Shown here: positions 2,191 to 64,000 of the stretch, piece by piece
How the letters are laid out: every line of letters starts with the position of its first letter
Numbering within the stretch: position 1 is the stretch's first letter
DNA from: Heptranchias perlo
Taxonomy: Eukaryota
Assembly: GCF_035084215.1 (NCBI RefSeq)
Contig: NC_090349.1
Location: 35,960,001-36,024,000 of the forward strand
DNA length: 64,000 nucleotides
Reading direction: 5' to 3'
Translations under genes and position numbers: made by a program
Notes under the pieces: generated by a model
The model's database searches: none
Told to the model about the DNA's origin: nothing
Seen by the model: the letters and a program-made list of their open reading frames with translations, nothing else

Positions 2191-5100
2191 TTTTTTTAAA
2201 AATTCATTCATGGGACGTGGGCGTCGCTCGCAAGGCCAGCATTTACTGCCCATCCCTAACTGTCCTTAGAGAAGGTGGTGGTGAGCCTCCTTCTTGAACC
2301 GCTGCAGTCCGTGTAGTGAAGGTTCTCTGATGGTGCGGTTAGGTAGGGCGTTCCAGAATTTTGACCTAGCAACAATGGAGGAACAGCGATATATTTCCAA
2401 GTCAGGATGGTGTGTCAACGTGCATGTGCCTGCTGCTCTTGTCCTTCTAGGTGGTAGAGGTCGCGGGTTTGGGAGGTGCTGTCAAAGAAGCCTTGGCGAG
2501 TTGCTGCAGTGTATCTTGTAGATGGCACACACTGCAGCCACGGTGCACCGGTGGTGGAGGGAGTGCCAATCAAGTAGGCTTTGTCCTGGATGTTGTCGAG
2601 TTTCTTGAGTGTTGTTGGGTCTGCACTCATCCAAGCAAGTGGAGAGTATTCCATCACACTTTTGACTTATGCCTTATAGATGGTGGAAAGGCTTTGGGGA
2701 GTCGGGAGGTGAGTCACTTGCCATAGAAGACCCAGCCTCTGACCTGCTCTTGTGGCCACAATATTTATGTGGCTGGTCCAGTATAGTTTCTGGTCAATGG
2801 TGACCCCCAAGATGTTGACAGTGGGGTATTCGGTGATAGTAATGACATTGAATGTGAAGGAGGGGTGATTAGACACTCTTGTTGGAGATGGTCATTGCCT
2901 GGCACAAAAGTTACTTGCCACTTATCAGCCCAAGCCTGGATGCTGTCTTGCTTCATGCAGGCATGGACTGCTTCATTACCTGAGAGGTTGTGAATGGAAC
3001 TGAACACTCTGCAATCACCAGCGAACATCCACATTTCTGACCTTATGATGGTGGGAAGGTCATTGATGAAGCAGCTGAAGACAGTTGGGCCTGGGACACT
3101 GCCCTGAGGAACTCCTGCAGCAATGTCCTGGGACTGAGATGATTGGCCTCCAACAACCACTACCATCCTTCCTTTGTGCTAGGTATGACTCCAGCCACTG
3201 GAGAGTTTTCCCCGATTCCCAATGACTTCAATTTTACTAGGGCTCCTTGATGCCACACTTAGTTAAATGCTGCCTTGATGTCAAGGGCAGTCACTCTCAC
3301 CTCACTTCTGGAATTCAGCTCTTTTGTCCATGTTTCTATGTTTGGACCAAGGATGTAATGAGGTCTGGAGCCAAGTGGTCGTGGTGGAACCCAAACTGAG
3401 CATTGGTGAGTAAGTGCTGCTTGATAGCACTGTTGACACCTTCCATCACTTTGCTGATGATTGAGAATAGACTGATGGGGCGGTAACTGGCCAGATTGGA
3501 TTTGTCCTGCTTTTTCAGGACAAGACATACCTGGGCAATTTTCCACATTGTCTGGTAGATGCCAGTGTTATAGCTGTATTGAAACAGCTTGGCTACAGGC
3601 ATAGCTAGTTCTGGAGCACAAGTCTTCAGCACTACAGCCGAGATGCTGTCAGGGCCCATTGCCTTTGCTGTATGCAGTGCACTCAGTCGTTTCTTGATAT
3701 CATGTGGAGTGACTCGAATTGGCTGAAGGCTGGCTTCTGTGATGGTGGGGATATCGGGAGTAGGCAGAGATGGATCATCCACTCAGCACTTCTGGCTGAA
3801 GATAGTTGCAAACGCTTCAGCCTTGTCGTTTGCACTCACACGCTGGGCTCCGCCATCATTGAGGATGGGGATATTCACAGAGCCTGCTCCTCCCATTAGT
3901 TGTTTAATTGTCCACCACCACTCATGACTGCAGAGCTTTGATCTGATCTGTTGGATGTGGGATCGCTTAGCTCTGTCTATAGCATGCTGCTTCAAACTGT
4001 TTAGCATGCATGTAGTCCTATGTTGTAGCTTCACCAGGTTGGCGCCTCATTTTTTTTTTTAAAGGTACACCTGCTGCTGCTCCTGGCATGCTCTTCTACA
4101 CTCCTCAATGAACCAGGGTTGATCCCCTGGCTTGTTGGTAATGGTAGAGTGAGGAATATGCCAGGCCATGAGGTTACAGATTGTGCTGGAATACAATTCT
4201 GCTGCTGCTGAGGGCCCACAGCACCTCATGGATGTCCAATTTTGAGGTGCTAGATCTGTTCTGAATCTATCCCATTTAGCACGATGGTAGTGCCACACAA
4301 CACGTTGGACGATGTCTTCAGTGTGAAGACGGGACTTCGTCTCCACAAGGACTGTGTGGTGGTCACTCCTACCAATAATGTCATAGACAGATGCATCTGC
4401 GACAGGTAGATTGGTGAGGATAAGGTCAAGTAGGTATTTCCCTTGTGTTGGTGTTCTCACCACCTGCTGTAGGCCCAGTCTGGCAACTATGTGCTTCAGG
4501 ATTCAGCCAGCTTGGTCAGTAGTGGTCCTACCGAGCCACTCTTGGTGATGGACATTGAAGTCCCCCATCCAGAGTACATTCGGTACCCTTACTGCCCTCA
4601 GTGCTTCCTTCAAGTGGTGCTCAACATGGAGGAGGACTGATCCATAAGCTGAGGGAGGGCAGTTGGTGATAATCAGCAGGACGTTTCCTTGCCCATGTTT
4701 GACCTGATGTCATGAGATTTCATGGGGTCCAGAGTCAATGTTGAGGGCTCCCAGGGCCACTCCCTCCTCTCTGCATGCCACTGTGCCACCACCTCTGGTG
4801 GGTCTGTCCTGCCAGTGGGACAGGGCATTCCCAGGAATGGTGGAGGAGTCGTCTGGGACGTTGGCTGAAAGGTATGATTTTGAGAGTATGGCTATGTCAG
4901 GCTGTTGCTTGACTAGTCTGTAGGAAAGCTCTCCCAATTTTGGCACAAGTCCCCAGATGTTAGTAAGAAGGACTTTGCAGGGTCAGCTGGGCTTGGTTTG
5001 CCTTTGTCACATCTCCTGCCTAGTGGTCCGATGCCGGGTGGTTCATCTGGTTTTACCTTATGACTTCCTGTAGCGGGATTTTAAAACGGAGTGGCTTGCT

Positions 5101-5411
5101 CGGCCATTTCAGAAGGCAGTTAAGAATCAACCACATTGCTGTGGGTCTGGAGTCACGTATAGGCCAGACCAGGTAAGGACGGCAGGTTTCCTTCCCTAAA
5201 AAGGACATTAGTGAACCAGATGGGTTTTTAAGACAATCCAGTAGATTCACGGTCACGATTACTGATACTAGCTTTTTAGTCCAGATTTTATTTAATTAAC
5301 TGAATTTAAGTTCCCCAGCTGCCATAGTGGGATTTGAACTCATGATTCCAGATTATTAGTCCAGGCCTCTGGATTACTAGTCCAGTAACATAACCACAAT
5401 GCTACCACACC
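2191..5411 (-). mobile_element. Near full-length LINE family B (APE endonuclease + RT, CR1/L2-group-like), no ORF1, tRNA-derived 5' head; frameshifted
   Basis: Motifs occur in order on the minus strand: NIWGL..PDIAILS (~4960-4880), GDFNVHH (~4560), LDLILTN..GRSDH, AMGPDSI, YRPISL, QFGF, LDIKAAF, GVPQGSV, FAGD. An A-rich tail lies at ~2191-2202. Confidence 0.9.
5325..5411 (-). promoter_or_regulatory. tRNA-derived Pol III internal promoter (A box, B box) at the 5' end of LINE family B
   Basis: The minus strand has A box TAGCATTGTGG (5404-5394), anticodon-like arm CTGGA-CTAGTAA-TCCAG (5385-5369) and B box GAGTTCAAATCC (5341-5330). Confidence 0.8.
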
Positions 5412-5543
5412 CTTAGTTTAAGGATAAGTTGCTCTAGCTACTGCTGCTCTATTCTTTCCTTTCTACCTTTCCCTACTCCTCGGATAATCATCCATCTTTC
5501 CTCCTTCACCGCTCGCTCCCTATCTCTCACTGGTGTGACTAAA

Positions 5544-5982
5544 AAAGACTTGTATTTATATAGCGCCTTTCATGCCCTCAGGATGTCCAAAAGAACTTTA
5601 CAGCCTATTAAGTACTTTTGAAGTGTAGTCACTGTTCTAATGTAGGAAAAGCTGCAGCCTATTTGCACACAGCAAGATCCAAAAACAGCAACGTGATAAT
5701 GACCAGATCATCTGTTTTTAGTGATGTTGGTCGAGAGATAAATATTGGCCAGGTTAAGGGAAGAACCCCCCCGCTCTTCTTCAAAAAGTACCATGGGATC
5801 TTTTATGTTCACCTGAGGGGCCAGATGGGTCCTGGGTTAAACATCTCATCCGAAAGATGGCACCTTTAACAGTGCAGCATTCCTTCAATGTCGGCTTAGA
5901 TTTTTTGCTTAAGTCTGTGGAGTGGGACTTGAACCCACAACCAGCTAGCTAAGAGTGCCACCAACTGAATCACAGCTGACAC
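5544..5982 (-). mobile_element. Deu-domain SINE (SacSINE1/AmnSINE-like) with tRNA head and L2-type tail
   Basis: B box (gggacttgaacccac on +), Deu-like core ccatgggatcttttatg..cacctgag..catccgaaagatggcacc, and L2-like tail ttgtatttatatagcgcctttca. Homologous to 59400-59775. Confidence 0.8.
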
Positions 5983-8447: not shown

Positions 8448-8538
8448 CCCACACTCACCTGACGAAGGAGAAAGCCTCCGAAAGCTTGTGATTTTCAAAT
8501 AAAACAGTTGGACTATAACCTGTTGTTGTAAGATTCCT
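8448..8538 (+). mobile_element. Penelope-type pLTR fragment with hammerhead, single arm
   Basis: TSD tccagcagaaat at 8436-8447 and 8539-8550. Homologous to the arms at 32404, 34043 and 50970. Confidence 0.85.
8455..8491 (+). ncRNA. Minimal type I hammerhead ribozyme motif
   Basis: TCAC-CTGACGA-A-GGAG(aaagc)CTCC-GAAA-GC-T-T-GTGA: stem I TCAC/GTGA, conserved core, palindromic stem III AGCT (dimer type). Predicted cut after 8487. Confidence 0.8.
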
Positions 8539-11117: not shown

Positions 11118-12586
11118 GAATCTTTTTGAGGAGGTCACAAACATGGTGGTTAGTGTGTATGTATGGATGTGTGTGGATGGAGTGTGTATGGATGTTATCT
11201 ATATGGACTTCCAGAAGGCGTTTGATAAGGTTCCGTACAAGAGATTAGCAAAAATTAGAGTGCACAGAATTGGAGGCAACTTTGTGACACGTTGGAAATT
11301 GGTTGGGAAGTAGGAGACAGTGGGGGATAAAGGGTACGGACTCTGATTGGCAGGATATGACACATGGTGTTCCCCAGAGATCTGTACTGGGGCTCAGCTT
11401 TTCACCATATTTACGACTTGGATGAAGATGACAGTTGTATATCGAAGTTTGCAGATGACACTAAGTTGGGAGGCACAGTAAATTGTGCAGAGGGGAGGAG
11501 GATGTTACAAAGGGCCATAGACATATTAAGTGAGTGGGCAAAACAGTGGCAAATAGAGTTCAAAATGGGGAAATGTGAGGTCATTCACTTTGGATCCAAG
11601 AAAGACAAATCAGAGTATTTTCTAAATGCTGAGAAACTAGGAATTGTGGATGAGCAAAGGGATTTGAGTCTCCATGTACACAAATCACTAAAATCTAGTG
11701 GCTAGGTTAAAAAAGAATCAAAAAGGCTAACAGAATGTTGGCCTTTATCCCATGGGGGTTGGAATATGAAGGGGGTGGAGTTATGCTCCAGTTGTATAAA
11801 GCCTTGGTCAGACCCCATCCGGAGTACTGCGTTCAGTTCTGGGTGCCGCACCTCAGGAAAGATATATTGGCTTTGGAAAGGGTACAGCGCAGATTCACCA
11901 GAATGATATTGGGGCTTAAAGAGTTAAATTATGAGGACAGGTTGCATAAACCTGGCTTGTATTCCCTCGAGTTTAGAAGATTGAGGAGTGATCTAACTGA
12001 CCTGTTTAAAATGGTTACGGGATTCCATAGAGTAGATACAGAGAAACTATTTCCTCTTGTGGGGGAAATTCAGAACAAGGGGGCATAATCTTAAAATTAG
12101 AGCTAAACCATTCAGGAGTTAAATCAGGAAGCATCTTTTCACACTAAGGGTAGAAGAAATCTGGAACATTCCCTCCCCAAAACGCTGTGGATGCCGGGTT
12201 AATTGAAACTTTCAAGGTGGAGATCAATAGATTTTTGTTAGGTAAGGAAAGGGTGGTGAGTGTCTGGAACGAGCTGCCAGAGGCAGTGGTAGAGGCGGGT
12301 ACAATTTTGTCTTTTAAAAAGCATTTGGACAGTTACATGGGTAAGATGGGTATAAAGGGATATGGGCCAAGTGCAGGCAATTGGGACTAGCTTAGTGGTA
12401 TAAACTGGGCGACATGGACATGTTGGGCCGAAGGGCCTGTTTCCATGTTGTAAACTTCTATGATTCTATGATATCGAGGGATATGGAGCAAAGCCAGGTA
12501 AATGGCATTGAGGTACAGATTAGCCATGATCTAACTGAATGGCGGAACAGGTTTGAGGGGCTGAATGGCCCACTCCTGTTCCTATG
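11118..12586 (+). mobile_element. CR1 LINE, 5'-truncated
   Basis: MDFQKAFDKVP, SKFADDTKLGG and LYKALVRPHPEYCVQFW. The 3' end is cctgttcctatg. Confidence 0.92.
12248..12471 (+). mobile_element. Young CR1 3'-end insert nested in older CR1
   Basis: WNELPEAVVEAG..FKKHLD with a ttctatga tail. It splits the host at ggtaagga/tatcgaggg and is near-identical to 14586-14797. Confidence 0.9.
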
Positions 12587-12649
12587 ACAAGTCCATGAGC
12601 TCCTTGCACTTGTTGGAAGTGAGGGTAGTGGGGCTTAAGGAAAGAAAGA

Positions 12650-23979: not shown

Positions 23980-25748
23980 TTAGACAAAGTCAACATGGGT
24001 TTATGAAAGGGAAATCGTGACAAACCTACTGGAGTTTTTTTGAGGTTGTAACCGGTAGAATAGATAAGGGAGAACCAGTGGATGTGGTTTATTTGAATTT
24101 TTGGAAGGCCTTTGATAAAGTCCCACATAAGAGGTTAGTGTGCAAAATTAAAGCGCATGGGATTGGGGGTAATATACTGGCATGGATTGAAAATTGATTA
24201 ACAGACATGAAACAGAGAGTAGGAATAAATGGTTCTTTTTCGGGGTGGCAGGCAGCGACTTGTTTTTTTATTCGTTCATGGGATGTGGGCGTCACTGGCA
24301 AGGCCGGCATTTATTGCCCATCCCTAGTTGTCCTTGAGAAGGTGGTGGTGAGCCGCCTTCTTGAACCGCTGCAGTCCGTGTGGTGAAGGTTCTCCCACAG
24401 TGCTGTTAGGAAGGGAGTTCCAGGATTTTGACTCAGCGACAATGAAGGAACGGCAATATATTTCCAAGTCAGGATTGTGTGACTTGGAGGAGGTGAGTCA
24501 CTCGCCACAGAATACCCAGCCTCTAACCTGCTCTTGCAGCCACAGTGTTTATGTGGCTGGTCCAGTTAAGTTTCTGGTCAATGGTGACCCCCAGGATATT
24601 GATGGTGGGGGATTCAGCGATGGTAACGCCGTTGAATGTCAAGGGGAGGTGGTTAGACACTCTCTTGTTGGAGATGGTCATTGCCTGGCACGAATGTTAC
24701 TTGCCACTTATGAGCCCAAGCCTGGATGTTGTCCAGGTCTTGCTGCAAGACTAGTGGGGTACCGCAGGGATCAGTGCCCCAGCTATTCACAATATTCATC
24801 AATGATTTGGATGAAGGAACCAAATGTAATATTTACAAGCTTGCTGACGACACAACACTAGGTGGGATTGTGAATTGAGGGGAGGATGCAGAGGCTTCAA
24901 GGCAATTTAGACAAGTTGAGTGAGTGGGCAAATACATGGCAGATGCAGTATAATGTGGATAAATGTGAAGTTATCCACTTTGGAAGGAAAAACAGAAAGG
25001 CAGAGTATTATTTAAATAGTGATAGATTGGGAAATGTTGATGCACAAAGAGACCTGGGTGTCCTTGTACACCAGTCACTGAAAGCAAACGTGCAGGTACA
25101 GCAAGCAGACAGGAAGGCAAATGGTATGTTGGCCTTCATTGCAAGAGGATTTGAGTACAGGAGCAAGGATGTCTTACTACAGTTATACAGGGCCTTGAGA
25201 CCACACCTGTAGTATTGTGCACAGTTTTGGTCTCCTTACCCAAGGATATACTTGCCATAGAGGGAGTGCAGTCAAGGTTCACCAAGCTGATTCCTGGGAC
25301 GGCAGGACTGTCGTATGAGGAGAGATTGTGTAGGCAAAGCCTGTGTTCACTAGAGTTTAGAAGAATGAGAGGGGATCTTATTGAAACATATAAATTTCTG
25401 ATAGGGTTAGACAGACTGGATGCAGGAAGGATGTTTCCCCTGGCTGGGGGGTCTAGAAAGAGGGGTCACAATCTCAGGATACGGGGTAGGGCATATAGGA
25501 CTGAGATGAGGAGAAATTTCTTCAGAGGGTGGTGAACCTGTGGAATTCTCTACCATAGAAGACTGTGGAGGCCAAGTCACTGAATATATTTAAGAAGGAG
25601 CTAGACAGATTTCTAGACACAGAAGGCATCGAGGGGTATGGGGAGGGAGCAGGAATATGGTATTGAGATAGAGGATCAGCCACGATCATATTGAATGGCG
25701 GAGCAGGCGCGAAAGGCCGAATGGCCTACGCCTGCTCCTATTTTCTAT
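23980..25748 (+). mobile_element. CR1 LINE, 5'-truncated
   Basis: QHGFMKGKS, KAFDKVPH, WANTWQMQYNVDKCEVIHFG and RMRGDLIETYK. The 3' end is cctgctcctattttctat. Confidence 0.92.
24261..24748 (-). mobile_element. LINE family B 3' fragment with internal deletion, nested in CR1
   Basis: Matches 62992-63825 except for a ~340 bp deletion at ~24490. gact is repeated at both junctions. Confidence 0.9.
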
Positions 25749-28765: not shown

Positions 28766-28908
28766 TGATGTGGAGATGCCGGTGATGGACTGGGGTTGAC
28801 AATTGTAAACAATTTTACAACACCAAGTTATAGTCCAGCAATTTTATTTTAAATTCACAAGCTTTCGGAGATTTTCTCCTTCCTCAGGCAAACATTTGCC
28901 TGAGGAAG
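28766..28908 (-). mobile_element. Penelope-type hammerhead insert with tail and 14 bp fold-back
   Basis: TSD cagattatttttga at 28755-28768 and 28909-28922. Hammerhead on minus at 28892-28854. Short inverted arm cttcctcaggcaaa-ca-tttgcctgaggaag. Confidence 0.9.
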
Positions 28909-29464
28909 CAGATTATTTTTGAGCAGAGTTGCAATTTACTATTCTGCAGCTCAGATTGGTGACATTGCACAACTCTCTGCAGGGCTAGAATTTGATGGTG
29001 GTGGCTGATAACCAAAGAATGCACCAAAATACAAATACAGCTTTGGTTCTGTCTCGGGAGGGAAAACATACACATACCACATTTACACACTGGACTGGAG
29101 GCATGCCAGGCATTTTAGGAGTTTTCTACTCCGGACGGAAAGCACAAATTTTAGCCCTGCTGTACAGATAATCCTGGCATAATCAGCAAATGGTTGTGGA
29201 ATTAACATGTTTAAGGAAGGGCATCATGCTTTATTACAGCACTTTGAATATTCAGAGTTAATGGGGGAAAAAAAGTTCTTTATATAGAATACTCAGCAGA
29301 CCTGGGTGGGTGGTACAGAGAACACACAAATAACACGATCCCATGGCTGGAAAACATCAATGCCGAGCTGGCTGTTGGCAGCAACTGGCCTCAGCATCTC
29401 CAGGCTAAGGAGGAGAGGGGGAACAAATCTGGCTTCAATTCCAGCTCCTGATTATCCAATGATC

Positions 29465-32040: not shown

Positions 32041-32290
32041 ATCAGTGGACCCGACACTGAAGGAGCAGGAATAAAAACATTAACTGTAAGAGTAAAACAG
32101 TAAGAGGGGATTTCTACATCTGTTAATTCAACTCCCTCGCTCTGGTTAGGCTTTGTGGTAAGTGAGGTCACCGGCACTCACCATAAAAACTCAACAAGGT
32201 ACAGAAGGAGGTTTTGATCAGTTTTTAAAGCAGAAGACTGCTCCTGTTACTATCTGTCTTACTGTTACTGATACTATCCTATTAAGGATA

Positions 32291-32531
32291 ATTATAAACA
32301 ATTTTACAACACCAAGTTATAGTCCAGCAATTTTATTTTAAATTCACAAGCTTTCGGAGATTTTCTCCTTCCTCAGGCAAATGTTTTTCTCCTTCCTCAG
32401 GCTAACATTTGCCTGAGGAAGGAGAAAATCTCCGAAAGCTTGTGAATTTAAAATAAAATTGCTGGACTATAACTTGGTGTTGTAAAATTGTTTATAATTG
32501 TCAACCCCAGTCCATCACCGGCATCTCCACA
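32291..32531 (+). mobile_element. Penelope-type hammerhead fold-back insert (96 bp arms, 18 nt spacer, tail)
   Basis: TSD ctattaaggata at 32279-32290 and 32532-32543. Arms 32290-32385 and 32404-32499. Hammerhead core CTGAGGA..GAAAGCTT at 32413-32441. Confidence 0.92.
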
Positions 32532-33951
32532 CTATTAAGGATAGTATTAGATTAAAAGAAGAGGCCTATAATGTTGCCAAGAGTAGTAAGCCTGAGGATT
32601 GGGAGAATTTTAGAAACCAAAGGACCAAATAATTGATAGAAAGAGAAAATCGAATATGAAAGTAAACTAGCAAGAAATATAAAGACTGATTGTAAGAGCT
32701 TCTACAAGTATGTAGAAAGGAAGAGAGCAGCAAAAGTAAAACATTGGTCCCTTTGCGGTTGAGACTGGAGAAATTATAATGTGGAAATCAGGAAACGGCA
32801 GATGCGTTAAAAAAAATATTTTGTATCTGTCTTCACAGTAGAAGACAAAAAACATACCAGAAATAGTGGGGAACCAAGGGTCTAATGAGAGTGAGGAACT
32901 TAAAGTAATTAATATCAGTAGAGAAAGAGTGCTTGAGAAACTAACAGGACTAAAAGCTGATAAATCCCCTGGACCTGATGGCCTACATCAGAGGGTTCCA
33001 AAAGAGGTGGCTGCATTATAGTGGATGCACTGGTAATGATCTTCCAAAATTCTCTAGATTCTAGAACAGTCTCAACGGATTGGATGGTAGCAAATATAAC
33101 CCCACTATTCAAGAAAGGAGGAACAGCAGAGAAAACAGGGAACTACAGGCCAGTTAGCCCGACATCAGTCATCGGGAAAATGCTAGAATCCATTAAGTGG
33201 TAACAGGGCACTTAGAAAATCATATGATTAGGCAGAGTCAACATGGTTTTATGAAAGAGAAATCATGTTGACAAATTTATTAAAAGTTTTTTGAAGATGT
33301 AACTAGCAGGATAGATAAAGGGAACCAGTGGATGTAGTATATTTGGATTTTCAAAAGGCATTCGATAAGGTGCCACATAAAAAGGTTGTTACGCAAGATA
33401 AAGGCTTATGGGGTTGGGAGTAACATTAGCATGGATAGAGGATTGGTTAACCAACAGAAAACAGTAGGGATAAACGGGTCACTTTCAGGTTGGCAGGCTG
33501 TAACTAGTGGGGTGCCGCAAGGATCGGTGCTTGGGCCTTAGCTATTTACAATCTATATTAATGACTTAGACGAAGGGACCGAGTGTAATGTATCCAAGTT
33601 TGCTGACGTTACAAAGCTAGGTGGGAAAGTAAACTGTGAAGAGGACACAGAGAGTCTGCGAATGGATATAGACAGGTTAAGTGAGTGGGCAAGAAGGTGG
33701 CAGATGGAGTATAATGTGGGGAAATGTGAGGTTATTCGCTTTGGTAGGAAGAACAGAAAAGCAGAATATTTTTTAAATGGTGAGAAACTATTAAATGCTG
33801 GTGTCCAGAGAGACTTGGGTGCCCTTGTACAAGAAACACAAAAACTAAGCATGCAGGTACAGCAAGCAATTAGGAAAGCAAATTGCATGTTGGCCTTTAT
33901 TGCAAGGGGTTTGGAGTACAAGAGTAGGGAAGTCTTACTACAATTGTACAG

Positions 33952-34170
33952 TTGTAAACAATTTTACAACACCAAGTTATAGTCCAACAATTTTTATTTG
34001 AAATCTACAAGCTTTCGGAGGCTTCCTCCTTCCTCAGGTAAATTTACCTGAGGAAGGAGGAAGCCTCCGAAAGCTTGTAGATTTCAAATAAAAATTGTTG
34101 GACTATAACTTGGTGTTGTAAAATTGTTTACAACTGTCAACCCCAGTCCATCACCGGCATCTCCACATCA
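33952..34170 (+). mobile_element. Penelope-type hammerhead fold-back insert, perfect 190 bp spacer-less palindrome plus tail
   Basis: Arms 33948-34042 and 34043-34137 are exact reverse complements. TSD tacaattgtacag (33939-33951) / tacagttgtacag (34172-34184). It interrupts the CR1 ORF. Confidence 0.93.
34044..34080 (+). ncRNA. Minimal hammerhead ribozyme motif (mirror copy on minus strand 34041-34005)
   Basis: TTAC-CTGAGGA-A-GGAG(gaagc)CTCC-GAAA-GC-T-T-GTAG. Confidence 0.75.
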
Positions 34171-36429
34171 TTACAGTTGTACAGGGCTTTGGTGAGACCT
34201 CAACTGGTGTTCTGTGTACCATTATGGTCTCAACTAAAGAAGGATATACTTGCTTTAGAGTTGGTGCAACGAAGGTTGACTGGATTAATTCCTGGGATGA
34301 GAGGGTTGTCCTATGAAGAGAGGTTGAGTAGAATGGGCCTATATTCTCTGGAGTTTAAAAGGATGAGAGTTGATCTCATTGAAACATAAGATTCTGAGGG
34401 CTTGATAGGGGAGATGCTGAGAGGTTGTTTCCGCTGGCTGGACAATCTAGAACAAGGGGGCATAGTCTCAGGATAAGGGGTCAGCCATTTAATACTGAGA
34501 TGAGGAGGAATTCCTTCACTCAGGGTGTTGTGAATCTTTGGAATTCTCTACCCCAGAGGCTGTGGATGCTGAGTCATTGAATATATTCAAGGCTGAGATA
34601 GTAAGATTTTTGGACTCTAGGGGAATCAAGGGATGTGGGGATCAGGCAGGAAAGTGGAGTTGAGATTGAACGGCTGAGCAGGCTCGAGGGGCTGTGTGGG
34701 CTTCTCCTGCTCCTATTTCTTATGTTCTTATATATACAGCACACCATTCACTAAGGATGCAGAGTATTCTACATACATTCATAAACTGGTAAAAAGCTAT
34801 TTTCCAGCACTCCAATATAATTCCAACCCTGTACTTTGTATAAGGTCTGTGCTTATGAAAAAGCAATTGGAAGCTTTTTTGTTTAAAGTTCCAATTGAGG
34901 GCGCTTTTGATCTACAACCACATCCGGTGGTAGATCTGTGGTGCAGACAGAGAGCGCAGTTGCCAGTTTTAAATCATGTCGAAACACTACTTGCAATAAA
35001 GACAAGTGGAACCCTACAAGCCCCTTTTCTACTCAGTTACGTAGGCAGGACGTGGCAAAGCAGATACTTCATGGCATCTACCATCATCTTGTTTTAGCCA
35101 GAACAAAAGTGCAGGGCAGACAAGGAGGAGGCAGGGGAAGAAGAGGGGAAATGGTAGCATAGTAGGCCACAATGTTTGCCCTCTAATGCAAAAAAGAATG
35201 GAAGGATACAGGTTCACACCTGTGGTTCTCGTATGATGAGTTACTTATCTTAAATCATGTCTTGACAGGAGAAGCTTCTCCACAAGGGGGGAGGGCAGAT
35301 GGCTGACAGGTTCCTGCACCTCCCGCCGGTGAGTCAGTGCCACATTAGCAGCAGCCAAAATCTCAGCATGTTATACAGTTTCTCCTGCTGGAAGTGCATA
35401 AATGTAGACATCGGGCAAGAGGGTTGAGCTCAGCTGTGATAGCACCCCCCCGTCACGGTTGAATACCCTGTCATCACTTGCTGTCAAAGGTCGGAGAGCA
35501 ACCGTGGAATCATACCTCAGCAGGGAGCTGGCACTTTTAGGAAAGGAGGCGAAAAATTAGCGGGGGTGGGGGGAGATATTCCCCACTGGGTTACAGCAAA
35601 AATTAGCTGACAAAATGCTCGTCTAGATCACAAAATGAGTCAAAACTACAGGGCTTTGCTATAAAAAGTCACCCACCCAAGCCAAAAGAAACACCACAGT
35701 GCAGATTTCCAATTTCTTTTTTAAAAGTCTAAATAATTCAGAGATGCTAGTGGCCTTTTGTCGTTCTGCTTTATTATGCAAAATATAGAATAAATGAGCA
35801 AGAGAGCGTGAGAGAAAGAGAAAGATTTGAAATCTGCAGATAAAATCTGACCTTAAAATAATTCTGCAAAATGCAAGTGGAGCCAGCCATAAACAGCCTG
35901 TTTTAGCTCATCACTGGATAGCCAAATGCACTAGATGTTTCGAAGCCAATCAGCTAAGTGAATCACCAGCTTTGCATTCTTCCCCCATGCAACTCGCGTT
36001 ACGGTCACTAGCCATCTCCCCCTCTCCCAGGTCACCCAACATGCTATCCTTAGCTAAACAATGATTTAATATATAATGGAGAACTATTAATACATTTCAA
36101 ATCATTTCAAACCTTGCCAAATAGATGTTTCAGTTCTGAAAATCTTCCCCGTTATTGTACATTTGCAGTGCGGGAAAAAAAATGGTCTTAGTCCAGGCAC
36201 CCAATCTAGGTACATATGACAGCTGATTCTATACAAAAGAACATGGTACTTAGTGGCACCACTGAATTACATAATCCTAAAGACAGTATTGCATTAAGAA
36301 ATCAGTAATACCATTTTTTTTTAATAAAAATTATAACTCGAGAGACAGCACATATGGACTTGTTAACTTTTGAGAAGGAAGAGGACGCAGTTTCAATCTT
36401 CGCGTAGAGTTTGCCACCTCAGCCATATT

Positions 36430-46309: not shown

Positions 46310-46565
46310 GAAGGGTCTTTCTGCACTCTCAGATGGACATAAAAGATCATGACACTATTCAAAGAGGAATTCACCCGGTGTCCTGGTCAATATTTATCCC
46401 TTAATCAACATCTAAAACAGATGATCTGGTCATTTATTTCATTGCTGTTTGTGGGACCTTGCTGTGCACAATTTGGCTGCCATGCTTCTTACTTTACAAT
46501 AGCACAAGCAATGAAGTACTTTTGAAGTGTAGTCAAAGCACTTTGGGACGTCCTGAGGTCATGAA
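46310..46565 (+). mobile_element. Deu-type SINE fragment
   Basis: ctctcagatggacataaaagatc..tcctggtcaatatttatccct..cattgctgtttgtgggaccttgctgtgcacaatttggctgcc. Confidence 0.75.
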
Positions 46566-48872
46566 AGGCCCTTTAAAAACTTATAACTGTGATATTGTAA
46601 ATGAAAATAAGGAAATGGCGGACATGTTAAATAATTACTTCGCGTCAGTATTTACAGTAGAGGACGAGGATATCCTGCCGGACGCCCCAAGGAAACTAAT
46701 TTTGAATCAGGGACAGGGACTCAGCACAATTAACATGAGCAAATTAACAATAATGAAGAAAATAACGGCACTGAAGAGTGACAAATCTCCAGGACCAGAT
46801 GGTTTCCAACCCAGGGTTTTAAAGGAAGTAGGAGAGAACATTGCAGAAGCCCCAACTATAATTGTCCAAAGTTCTCGCGATTTAAGAACTGTTCCTTTAG
46901 AATGGAAAATAGCGGAGTGACATGTGCAATTTAAGAAAGGTGAGAGGGGGAAACCAGAGAATTGTAGACCAGTTAGCCTAACATCTGTTGTCGGGAAACT
47001 ACGAGTGTCTATAATTAAGGAGAGAGTGACTGAACACCTTGAAAATTTTCAGCTGATCAGAGAGCACCAGCATGGATTTGTGAAGGATAGATTATGCCTG
47101 ATGAACCTGATTGAATTTTTTGAAGAAGTAACTAAAGTAGTGGACAGTGGAATGTATATGGATGTTGTTTATATGGACTTCCAGAAGGCATTCGATAAAG
47201 TCCCTCATAACAGACTGTTAGCTAAAGTTGAAGCTGAGAAGTTGAAATTATTGACCTGGTTAGGAAATTGGCTGAGCAGCAGGAGACAGAGAGTAGAGAT
47301 AATAGGCAGGTATTCAAATTGGCAGGATGAGACAAGTGGTGTCCCACAGGGATACAGGGCCTTGATGAGACTACACCAGGAGTAGTGTGTGCAGTTTTGG
47401 TCTCCTTACCTATGAAAGGATATACTTGCCAGAGGGAGAGCAGCGAAGGTTCACCAGACTGATTCCTGGGATGGCAGGACTGTCATATGAGGAGAGATTG
47501 GGTTGACTAGGCCTCTATTCACTAGAGTTTAGAAGAATGCGAGGGGATCTCATTGAAATGTATAAAATTCTGACAGGGCTTGACAGACTGGATGCAGGGA
47601 GGATGTTTCCCCTGGCTGGGGGTCCAGAACGAGGGGTCACAGTCTCAGGATACCGTGTAGGACATTTAGTACTGAGATCAGGAGAAATTTCTTCACTCAG
47701 AGGGTGGTTAACCTTTGAAATGCTCTACCACAGAAGGCTGTGGAGGCCAAGTCACTGAATATATTTAAAGAGATAGATTTCTAGACACAAAAGGCATCAA
47801 GGGGTATTGAGACAGAGGATCAGCCATGATCATATTGAACGGCGGAGCAGGCTCGAAGGGCCGAATGGCCTACTCCTGCTTTCTATGGATCTGTGTTGGG
47901 ACCTCAACTATTCACTATTTATTAACGACTTAGATGATGGGATAGCGAGCCACATACCCAAGTTTGCCGATGACAAAGATAGGCAGCATTGTAAGCAGTG
48001 TAGAGGGAAGCACAAAATTACAGAGAGATATTAATAGATTAAGTGAATGGGCAAAACTGTGAACAGGATTTCAATGTAGGCGTGTGAGGTCATCGACTTT
48101 GGACCTAAAAAAAAATAGATCAGAGTACTTTCTAAATGGTGAAAAGCTCAAAATAGTGGACGTCTAAAGAGACTTAGGGGCCCTTGTATGTCGACAATTA
48201 AAATGTCACGGACAGGTACAGAAAATAATCAAAAAGGCTAGTGGATTACAGGCCTTTATATCGAGAGGACTAGAATACAAGGGGGTAGAAGTTATGCTAC
48301 AGTTATACAAAGCCCTGGTTAGACCACACCTGGAGTACTGTGTTCAGTTCTGCGCACCGTACCTTAGGAAGGATATACTGGCCTTAGAGGGAGTGCAGCG
48401 TAGATTTACCAGAATGATAACTGGACTCCGAGGGTTAAATTACAAGGCGAGATTACACAAACTAGGGTGTATTCCCTGGAATTTAGAAGATTAGGGGGTT
48501 ATTTGATCAAAGTTTTCAAGATATTAAGGGGAACTGATGGGGTAGATAGAGAGAAACTATTTCCGCTGGTTGGGGAGTCTAGGACTTGGGGACGTAGCCT
48601 AAAAATTAGCACCAGGATTTTCAGGAGTGAGGATAGGAAACACTTCTACACGGAAAGGATAGAAGAAGTTTGGAACTCTCTTCCACAAACGGCAGTTGAT
48701 GTTAGCTCAATTGTTAATTTTAAATCTGAGATTGATAGACTTTTGTTAACCAAAGGTATTAAGGGATATGGGGCTATGGCAGGTATATGGAGTTAGGTCA
48801 CAGATCAGCCATGATCTCGTTGAATGGCAAAACAGGCTTGAGGGGTTAAATGGCCTACTCTTGTTCCTATGT
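46566..48872 (+). mobile_element. CR1 LINE, 5'-truncated
   Basis: LNNYFASVFT, KSPGPDG, QHGFVK, MDFQKAFDKVPH, GVPQG and LVRPHLEYCVQF. The 3' end is cttgttcctatg. Confidence 0.93.
47354..47886 (+). mobile_element. CR1 3' fragment of another subfamily nested in CR1
   Basis: Closely matches 25186-25748. It interrupts the host at cccacagggat/ggatctgtg (ggat duplicated). Confidence 0.88.
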
Positions 48873-50679: not shown

Positions 50680-51380
50680 GCACTTTAAGTATCTTTAACT
50701 CAATGAAATGTCCTAAGGCACTTTACTGGCAGAAGGGAAGGTACGAGGAGTGGAGAGAGAGAGAGAAGGGGGAATCTGAGCAATAAGGGAAGTACAAGAC
50801 GTAGATTTTCAGGAGGTGCCAAGAGGTAGCAATGATGTGGAGATGCCGGTGATGGACTGGGGTTGACAATTGTAAACAATTTTACAACACCAAGTTATAG
50901 TCCAGCAATTTTATTTTAAATTCACAAGCTTTCGGAGGCTTCCTCCTTCGTCAGGTAAATGTTCAGGAGCTCCTTGAACATTTACCTGACGAAGGAGGAA
51001 GCCTCCGAAAGCTTGTGAATTTAAAATAAAATTGCTGGACTATAACTTGGTGTTGTAAAATTGTTTACAAGAGGTAGCAAGGCAGTGGATTTAGGAAAAG
51101 AATTCATAATGCAGGGATACGATTGCTGGATACACAGTAGACTAGAGCTAGAAGGGCAGGGCCTGCCTGCTGGGATACAAGGCTAGACAAGACCGCATAG
51201 GTAGGTATAAGTGTGACCAGAGAAAGGGTTGAAAATGGGGTCAAAGTCGACATGGTGGGGAACAAGGTTTGGAGTGCAGAAGACAGTTAGCAAGAAATAA
51301 AGTGGAACAGACAGGATCCTTCTCTGGAGACACAGAATAGGAACAGTAAAGAGGCCTGAATTAAGAAGTTTCAAATACGA
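50680..51380 (-). mobile_element. Old L2 fragment hosting a Penelope-type insert
   Basis: aaatgtcctaaggcacttt tail; gaggtagcaaggcagtggatttaggaaaagaattc. Confidence 0.55.
50833..51070 (-). mobile_element. Penelope-type hammerhead fold-back insert (100 bp arms, 37 bp tail)
   Basis: TSD caagaggtagcaa at 50820-50832 and 51068-51080. Arms 50870-50969 and 50970-51070 differ by one extra T. Hammerhead core CTGACGA at 50986. Confidence 0.93.
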
Positions 51381-58681: not shown

Positions 58682-59399
58682 AATAATATATTCTTCCATT
58701 TACTGACTTGAGTGGTCTTGCCTCTTGATAGTGCCCCTGTAAGCACAGATGCTTTTTATGCACAAGGTAAATACAAAATGTCACAATAACTTGCATTAAT
58801 GTAACATTCATTACATCAGAAAGGCATCTAATCATGTATAAAACTTGCTGCACCACACAGTGGTGGGATGCAGGTACTTACTGACTTAGACTTTCTCTTC
58901 TCTTCCGTCCGCTCACCACCCCCCCACCCCACACACACAGACACATTCACACACACACACAAAGTTCTGACCCTTGGTAAAACCCAAGTTACGGAGCAAG
59001 ATTGGTAGAGGGTTTGGATCAATCACCTGGGCAGCCCCTTGATTAGACAATGTCACAGAGTAGAGTGGAAGGAAAAAAAATACTTGCATTTAGGTTTTGC
59101 ACTGTCACTGCTAATTATATCTGTTTCCCACTAGTGGGCAGAGGTCTGCAGTGACACATGCAAACTCTGCTCTTCACCTGAATAATATCCTGAAGTAGAT
59201 GTTTTTATATACTATAGTATGGAGGGTTATTAGCTGAAACTTCAAGCCTCACTGTTTAAACACAACCCTGCAGTGCTCTTTTTAAATTGAGAAACCAAAG
59301 TAAAGTGCCAAGTCTCTGTCAAGTTTGAAAAGAGTATGAGGGATGACAGGCCAATGAGGAAGGTGTGATTAGGCAGCACCGAACCTAAGAAAGAACAAA

Positions 59400-59775
59400 A
59401 GAATATGCATTTATAAAGTGTCTTTTGCAACCTCAAGACAAACCAAAATGGTTAGCAGCCAATGAAATACTTTTAAAGTGTAGTCACTGTTGTAATGTAG
59501 GGAAATGCAGCGGCCAATTTGAGTACAGCAAGGGTCCCACAAACAGCAGTGAGATAAATGACCAGGTAATCTGTTTTAGTGATGTTGACCAGGACACCAT
59601 CAGAACTCCCCTGTTCCTCTTGAAATAGTGCCATGGGATCTTTTATGCCCACCTGAGAGAGAAGACGGGACTTCAGGTTAACATCTCATCTGAAAGATGG
59701 CACCTCTGACAGTGAGGGTTGAACCCACGACCTTCTGATTTGGAGGTGAGTGTGCTGCCACTGAGCTGAGGCTAA
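59400..59775 (-). mobile_element. Deu-domain SINE
   Basis: tgccatgggatcttttatgcccacctgagag..aacatctcatctgaaagatggcacctc..ttgaacccac; homologous to 5544-5982. Confidence 0.8.
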
Positions 59776-62991: not shown

Positions 62992-64000
62992 TTTTTTTTA
63001 AATTCGTTCACGGGATGTGGGCGTCGCTGGCGAGGCCAGCATTTATTGCCCATCCCTAATTGCCCTTGAGAAGGTGGTGGTGAGCCGCCTTCTTGAACCG
63101 CTGCAGTCCGTGTGGTGACGGTTCTCCCACAGTGCTTTAGGAAGGGAGTTCCAGGATTTTGATCCAGCGACAATGAAGGAACGGCGATATATTTCCAAGT
63201 CGGGATGGTGTGTGACTTGGAGAGGAACGTGCAGGTGGTGTTGTTCCCATGCGCCTGCTGCTCTTGTCCTTCTAGGTGGTAGAGGTCGCGGGTTTGGGAG
63301 GTGCTGTCGAAGAAGCCTTGGCGAGTTGCTGCAGTGCATCCTGTGGATGGTGCACACTGCAGCCACAGTGCGCCGGTGGTGAAGGGAGTGAATGTTTAGG
63401 GTGGTGGATGGGGTGCCAGTCAAGCGGGCTGCTTTATCTTGGATGGTGTCGAGCTTCTTGAGTGTTGTTGGAGCTGCACTCATCCAGGCAAGTGGAGAGT
63501 ATTCCATCACACTCCTGACTTGTGCCTTGTAGATGGTGGAAAGGCTTTGGGGAGTCAGGAGGTGAGTCACTCGCCACAGAATACCCAGCCTCTGACCTGC
63601 TCTCGTAGCCACAGTATTTATATGGCTGGTCCAGTTAAGTTTCTGGTCAATGGTGACCCCCAGGATGTTGATGGTGGGGGATTCGGTGATGGTAATGCCG
63701 TTGAATGTCAAGGGGAGGTGGTTAGACTCTCTCTTGTTGGAGATGGTCATCGCCTGGCACTTATCTGGCGCGAATGTTACTTGCCACTTATCAGCCCAAG
63801 CCTGGATGTTGTCCAGGTCTTGCTGCATGCGGGCTCGGACTGCTTCATTATCTGAGGGGTTGCGAATGGAACTGAACACTGTGCAGTCATCAGCGAACAT
63901 CCCCATTTCTGACCTTATGATGGAGGGAAGGTCATTGATGAAGCAGCTGAAGATGGTTGGGCCTAGGACACTGCCCTGAGGAACTCCTGCAGCAATGTCC
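62992..64000 (-). mobile_element. Young copy of LINE family B (RT C-terminal half, runs off window end)
   Basis: ORF 63043..63906(-) is open for 287 aa with FADD, WADKWQVTF and YKAQVRSVMEY. GVPQGSVLGP lies just upstream. Poly(A) at 62992-62999. Confidence 0.95.

Follow-up and report, generated by a model that had tools for sequence, protein, structure and literature searches.

By the usual division, LINEs encode protein and use RNA polymerase II (Pol II), whereas SINEs are non-coding and use RNA polymerase III (Pol III). According to the portion of Kojima (2024) consulted here, transcription of non-LTR retrotransposons relies on Pol II, and SINEs are kept to 100–700 bp by the limited processivity of Pol III (PMC10886601). 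Zenon elements, of the CR1 group, are reported in elasmobranchs, coelacanth and hagfish; they have no ORF1 and carry a poly-A tail in all phyla covered by the consulted part of that survey (Stuart et al., 2026; PMC13343379). In what we consulted of its main text the terms tRNA, promoter, polymerase, Pol III and start codon occur zero times, as does tRNA in the supplement. A lepidopteran Zenon derivative, Persaeus, keeps the 5' UTR; the sections consulted describe it as lacking both a Pol III promoter and homology to tRNA, 5S or 7SL RNA (Wang et al., 2019; PMC6740152).

The element studied here lies near one end of the window, by which we mean the whole 64,000-nucleotide stretch of DNA analysed. 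Its features, all on the minus strand, are as follows.

2191..5412, minus strand: whole element, a decayed full-length copy of an elasmobranch Zenon LINE; over its entire length it shares 88.2% identity with the majority built from 21 full-length copies
5320..5412, minus strand: tRNA-derived head with a duplicated anticodon-like arm between the boxes; closest of those tested is tRNA-Thr(AGT), from alignment, with an ARAGORN call in one relative and a below-cut-off Rfam match in another
5394..5404, minus strand: A box, from sequence; first T at +9 counted from the common 5' end
5330..5341, minus strand: B box, from sequence; kept in the shark Zenon supplement rows, one base short in the stingray row (by eye)
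5085..5319, minus strand: AT-rich spacer and conserved body (5' UTR), common to SINE-length derivatives; spacer predicted to pair with the head
4962..5080, minus strand: linker; in the endonuclease frame it codes for an N-terminal extension rich in Arg and lacking an AUG; length a multiple of 3 in all measurable young copies and most older ones
4350..4961, minus strand: APE endonuclease domain, broken, low end approximate; PF14529 and PF03372 pieces, equivalent to aa 43–246 of the intact protein P0001
2790..3510, minus strand: reverse transcriptase domain, broken, ends approximate; PF00078 pieces, equivalent to aa 528–776 of P0001 (E 2e-35; tblastn mapping)
2198..2262, minus strand: short 3' UTR, common to the LINE, truncated copies and SINE-length derivatives (copy comparison)
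2191..2197, minus strand: A tail, from sequence; this copy has no clear target-site duplication

Read directly, the minus strand agrees with the order given by the initial annotation, namely head, body, linker, NIWGL and A tail. The element starts with G at 5412, the NIWGL codons run from 4961, and no A tail separates head from ORF in this copy; the roughly 450 nt between 5' end and NIWGL therefore leave no space for ORF1. This copy is a dead family member. Its longest stop-free piece is 148 aa, Pfam recovers endonuclease and reverse transcriptase pieces from its broken frames only below the curated cut-offs, and its 5' region has gained a T5 (5202–5198) and a T4 (5086–5083). Neither ARAGORN nor Rfam calls a tRNA in it, so its tRNA origin rests on better-preserved copies. 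Four further family pieces in the window all lack the 5' part. The one that crosses position 64000 (L061) is headless, being 5'-truncated about 1.5 kb into the element. At 24260–24747 lies a family 3' fragment with an internal deletion of about 330 nt.

Other repeats occupy the same window. A second, older tRNA-type SINE (5541–5950, minus strand), which may resemble the Deu-domain SacSINE1, sits upstream of the element, some 130 bp away and equally oriented, and has further copies near 12640, 46320–46580 and 59390–59715. Near-perfect palindromes of about 200 bp, fold-back or MITE-like, occur at 28766–28912, 32287–32537, 33948–34172, 50831–51070 and 8451–8535, with family copies 78–98% alike. 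Pieces of another, more distant LINE family (46528–48871, 11178–12586, 24750–25741 and 33030–34711) show 20–35% protein identity to the Zenon frame over long matches, and the neighbouring loci L064, L067 and L070 carry long open CR1-type frames. In a database protein named aldo-keto reductase-like (P0002), one stretch matches 22% of the Zenon frame at 96% identity; this is either a gene model that absorbed a Zenon piece or an exonisation.

A 566-nt query spanning head and junction was compared with the host genome, giving 40 scored matches of 8,566 candidates, one of them the window copy. The other 39 scored loci all share the head–ORF junction, at 86–89% identity over nearly the whole query, and the upstream flanks of the 29 other loci viewed are unrelated to one another. 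When all 39 are extended, 20 align as one piece from end to end. The majority of the 21 full-length head-selected copies has a single frame of 972 codons from stop to stop, preceded in the family by about 350 nt and no ORF1, and one real copy (L048) is open for 973 codons. In P0001, the protein of an intact relative, PF14529, PF03372 and PF00078 all score above the Pfam cut-offs. A tails are found in the window copy, the family majority and young copies; a crude detector finds target-site duplications short or absent in most copies.

A head-blind search of the host genome with the endonuclease protein listed 150 matches of 89,575 candidates, and 61 of these 150 have a frame of at least 960 aa. 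Among the first 30 protein-selected loci, 19 extend to the head (L048 among them), 10 end early, at element nt 105–323, where they abut unrelated DNA, and 1 is rearranged. Forty of the 61 intact-frame copies were fetched whole; 26 extend to the head and are 97.4–99.4% identical to their own majority. No alternative common 5' UTR and no ORF1 is present among the 30 protein-selected loci and the 40 intact-frame copies. Two explanations that treat the fusion as inconsequential, a SINE landing by chance beside a truncated LINE or a non-coding chimera amplified passively, agree with a window copy that is broken and lacks a target-site duplication. They do not agree with the same junction at 39 other loci, in intact copies and in the consensuses of five other species (as displayed in the consulted supplement), nor with an ORF under purifying selection (below). 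Chance insertion is already refuted, and to the two explanations together we attach next to no probability. Because the junction recurs at other loci and the intact copies with heads bring no different 5' UTR or ORF1, the head–ORF fusion that the initial annotation had read from one copy stands as a real structure, and the intact ORF it had proposed to look for in other copies is present many times over.

We lean, with modest confidence, towards the reading that this is a Zenon whose 5' end was adopted from a tRNA(Thr)-like promoter and which is putatively transcribed by Pol III. An alternative that we think unlikely, though it deserves serious weight, accepts the tRNA head as the true LINE 5' end but assigns the coding RNA to Pol II, which would either start at an internal promoter within the conserved body or read through from host genes; the boxes would then be kept for TFIIIC binding (insulation, start-site setting) or through head exchange with Pol III-made SINE derivatives. 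In its favour, 14 of the 40 intact-frame copies are without a whole head and could serve read-through transcripts, and in the consulted text of PMC10886601 all characterised APE LINEs are taken as Pol II-made.

The family itself is a published one. Two body motifs of the window copy are present in the consulted parts of the PMC13343379 supplement, at 6 and 7 places, and all 7 places of the second are elasmobranch Zenon rows from five species including stingray. The first 400 nt match the published rows by eye, not by alignment, with exact 15–17-mers in common. We accordingly place SquAca_Zenon-1/2/3, CarCar_Zenon-1, ScyCan_Zenon-1, RhiTyp_Zenon-1 and HypSab_Zenon-1 in the same family as the window element; the spiny dogfish (SquAca) rows look nearest by eye. 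The elasmobranch Zenons and the window element's family are alike in being about 3.3 kb long, with one APE and reverse transcriptase frame, no ORF1, a poly-A tail and the same 5' 400 nt, and no structural difference is seen. Vingi, RTEX and L2 had been considered as the clade ahead of the Zenon match; host-genome CR1 frames are only 27–30% identical to the Zenon frame, and named homologous proteins are uninformative on clade.

This identification changes how two earlier arguments read. The absence of ORF1 had been taken as anomalous, but Zenon elements lack ORF1 across the phyla covered in the consulted text (PMC13343379), so that argument falls and a missing ORF1 is ordinary for the family; it and the poly-A tail are already known for Zenon. 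The body had been likened to a fish tRNA-SINE, a likeness that finds no confirmation: the four motifs are in no paper text searched, nor in the MetaSINE supplement PDF or the Kojima 2018 supplement, and the body motifs occur in the elasmobranch Zenon consensuses displayed. No match to a Deu, Meta or V domain was demonstrated for the body. Intact frames are also more numerous than the published tables suggest, with at least 61 of at least 960 aa in the host genome against few intact ORF2s in the tables consulted (0/2313, 1/1419 and 3/612, top lengths 324–747 aa; PMC13343379). Counting from the first Met, which gives 724 aa in the host family, may explain those low counts. Across the literature searched, with Repbase, Dfam, SINEBase and subscription journals outside its scope, neither a tRNA-headed Zenon nor a coding LINE transcribed by Pol III is described. 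This is a known family with a previously undescribed promoter architecture.

The head appears to be an elasmobranch gain, judging from the few published rows compared by eye over their first 400 nt: seven shark and ray Zenon rows from 5 species open with the same A/B-box head, and two hagfish rows and one coelacanth row have other beginnings and many T-runs. Aligned with a host tRNA-Thr(AGT) gene, heads of the family score 49.5–52 against 42–45.5 for the best shuffles (window head, 52 against 43.5 for the best of 300); the gene was located by a pattern that included the element's own 7-nt loop, so the search favoured this isotype. Among the 4 element loci submitted to ARAGORN, 1 is called as a tRNA (L138, a copy lacking the duplicated arm), and the Rfam tRNA model gives the young copy L298 18.7 bits (E 0.5), below the cut-off of 29. 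The A box starts at +9, as in a tRNA, and the 5' end of the element is the tRNA +1 position. Transcription by Pol II does not predict a 5' end placed so exactly, although the body is better conserved between species than the head (by eye, in the rows displayed), as a promoter within the body would have it.

The first 200 nt are predicted to form a long head–spacer stem, not a cloverleaf (young copy, fold z=-3.9; 0/100 shuffles equal). In L298 the spacer after the B box is predicted to pair, across nt 135–335, with the tRNA 5' half, and by eye the displayed whale shark Zenon row changes both stem strands together. Speculatively, a stem of this kind could mask the tRNA fold, so that processing enzymes would not recognise it. 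In the 80 metagenome relatives fetched (23–41% identical) nothing resembles the head or the tail, and where ARAGORN with relaxed settings does call a tRNA (4 cases), the call falls within the coding stretch that matched. When an older subfamily bearing the head was sought, the matches were mostly to the same family (30 of 41 viewed). With A and B boxes at its 5' end and tRNA homology the element resembles a SINE2; a 3.3-kb LINE with a 973-aa frame is neither short nor non-coding, and only derivatives of about 430–470 nt are both.

A jump from body to tail, giving a SINE-length derivative, occurs in 5 of the 29 other head-selected loci, and a query built on the SINE junction gave 40 scored matches of 2,552 candidates in the host genome. 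In the 30 viewed, the joints recur at element nt 330/3209 (10 copies), 333/3211 (6), 343/3195 (5), 328/3209–3210 (3) and 325/3211 (2), with four single ones, the 5' sides all falling at nt 323–352. Sequencing runs from four other organisms, of unrecorded kind, cover the whole element and contain further joints, the commonest about 30 nt closer to the 3' end. That one frame has several different joints is better explained by internal deletion of the LINE, more than once, than by a single SINE that lent its head. Formation of a SINE by internal deletion, as first proposed, is supported, and the two alternatives then offered, an autonomous element or the parent of a SINE, look to hold simultaneously. 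In the 14 SINE heads sampled, the variants of older LINE copies are present and those of young copies are absent, so the LINE head has been evolving by itself, which counts against head exchange as the means by which a Pol II-transcribed element would keep its boxes. A SINE was nonetheless the likely source from which the head was originally captured.

The ORF has been maintained in copies that carry the head. Across 61 copies compared, private non-CpG changes divide into 336 synonymous and 836 non-synonymous (omega about 1.0), and changes common to at least 4 copies into 45 and 20 (omega about 0.18). For the 47 headed copies the corresponding counts are 312:778 private and 41:20 shared by at least 4 copies (P 2e-9). 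The 249 codons ahead of the first Met (aa 250) give 81:187 private and 13:3 shared changes in the same 47 copies (P 7e-5). Young headed copies alone, which were picked for open frames, give 5:5 shared changes and no signal. All 38 young copies in which the linker could be measured, and 14 of 18 older copies, have a linker length divisible by 3, and linker changes in common comprise 4 synonymous and 1 non-synonymous. Of 39 open young copies, a single one has a Met ahead of the endonuclease. Purifying selection thus acts on the ORF of tRNA-headed copies, and it extends to the 249 codons that precede the first AUG. The master elements therefore carried the head, and their endonuclease was likely translated from a start other than an in-frame AUG. 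Loss of a start AUG behind eight upstream ATGs (within the first 520 nt) is unpredicted if Pol II makes the coding RNA.

Two ATG-based alternatives were considered and set aside. An ATG frame of 76 aa that overlaps the ORF (+1 frame), a candidate mini-ORF1 or frameshift leader, has an omega of about 1.3 (2:7, small numbers) and no canonical slippery site that we could see, and is interrupted by eye in the displayed dogfish and stingray rows. Read-through of an in-frame ATG-GCC-TAG fails because the triplets are in frame in three published rows and not in two (by eye, as displayed), and host young copies carry a second stop seven codons further on. This two-codon ATG-GCC-TAG lies just upstream of the ORF, at element nt ~320–330 (window ~5107–5099), and is present in six of the seven elasmobranch rows displayed and in most host copies; among 36 young copies its last triplet is polymorphic (TAG 20, GAG 10, CAG 6).

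The sense strand of both family majorities contains no run of four or more T, against 17 and 21 runs of four A (zero against 21 in 3,335 nt). A T4 run has been gained in 5 of 40 young copies, and by eye the elasmobranch Zenon rows have none in the 400 nt displayed. Runs of T4 or longer are present in all 31 long metagenome relatives counted, of the 80 fetched, and in 3 host CR1 frames; the 31 relatives are T-richer (23–37% T against 20% in the element). Within the ORF, 5 runs of three or more T are observed against 16.3 expected when amino acids are fixed and third positions are drawn from the element's own composition, and 0 of 1,500 such recodings are as low. A-runs number 15 against 15.2 expected, and two CR1 controls recoded in the same way show no T-run deficit. 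Pol II transcription does not predict a loss of T-runs confined to one strand, but the absence of T4 by itself, a point in its favour, is not significant, at P about 0.10 against the element's composition in three nulls and 0.0035 only with uniform codon use. Among copies, 15 sites give no clear selection against new T-runs. The depletion has the look of a terminator-avoiding template and is circumstantial. Contigs from four runs guessed to be RNA cover head and ORF, although start, strand and polymerase are not readable from contigs.

The boxes, the 5' end and the T-run loss could also be explained if two RNAs divide the work, a Pol III uncapped transcript serving as template and occasional capped Pol II transcripts of the same copies supplying protein in cis or in trans; translation of uncapped RNA would then be unnecessary, and intact frames, 61 of the 150 listed matches, are numerous. 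Were protein supplied from other loci, the ORF of the copied template should drift, but in headed lineages it is under purifying selection, which is compatible with this scheme only if one master locus gives both RNAs. We regard it as improbable.

Returning to a Pol III promoter, the scheme we consider runs as follows. A tRNA-derived head with A and B boxes was likely acquired from a SINE ahead of the shark–ray split, and TFIIIC would bind these boxes. Pol III could then transcribe 3.3 kb, since no T4 would stop the polymerase, and would end at a T-run in the flank. Ribosomes would enter the endonuclease frame within the linker, with no AUG, on uncapped RNA, and the resulting protein would use target-primed reverse transcription, beginning at the 3' UTR and A tail, to copy the RNA that encoded it. 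Deletion of the ORF would leave head, body and tail as a ready-made SINE, apparently several times. Our belief is evenly divided on this scheme in full: that shark and ray Zenon is an autonomous coding retrotransposon whose 3.3-kb uncapped Pol III RNA is translated from an AUG-less start, whose coding strand has been kept clear of Pol III terminators from a time preceding the shark–ray split, and which repeatedly sheds tRNA SINEs by internal deletion.

If the tRNA promoter works, it would break the polymerase split between LINEs and SINEs, provide a natural example of translation of a long Pol III RNA, and reveal how a SINE can form in one step. Because the host genome has dozens of intact copies that are nearly identical, polymerase, cap state and start codon are directly testable. 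Compact single-ORF APE LINEs, namely ZfL2-2, Vingi-1 and RTE-1, are under development for gene insertion according to the excerpt consulted (PMC13708176). A LINE that possibly needs no cap would be of practical interest for that purpose.

Translation from unusual starts has precedents among LINEs. L1 ORF2 tolerates loss of its AUG, and R2 is translated from uncapped RNA that lacks a conserved AUG, a Pol I co-transcript cut by a ribozyme. No Rfam ribozyme, HDV-like ones included, matches the head or body of shark Zenon, a comparison that would miss a new fold. Lepidopteran Zenon and Persaeus offer a further likeness in the sections consulted, since there too a single-ORF Zenon has given rise by internal deletion, more than once, to short derivatives made of its 5' and 3' ends; the shark derivative differs from Persaeus in being a tRNA-headed SINE by structure (PMC6740152). 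RTE-1_DAn and the elements related to it, as described in the consulted part of Kojima (2018; PMC5786205), are likewise LINEs with a tRNA-like sequence matching many SINE2 elements; they belong to the RTE clade, however, and their tRNA-like matches were discarded as accidental. In Bov-tA, CoeSINE4 and SINE2_Gav, from the same source, SINE body and tail are both LINE-derived (from RTE or Vingi ends), but a separate tRNA head was added after the deletion and the LINE is headless. In shark Zenon, by contrast, the coding LINE itself bears the head, and its clade is neither RTE nor Vingi.
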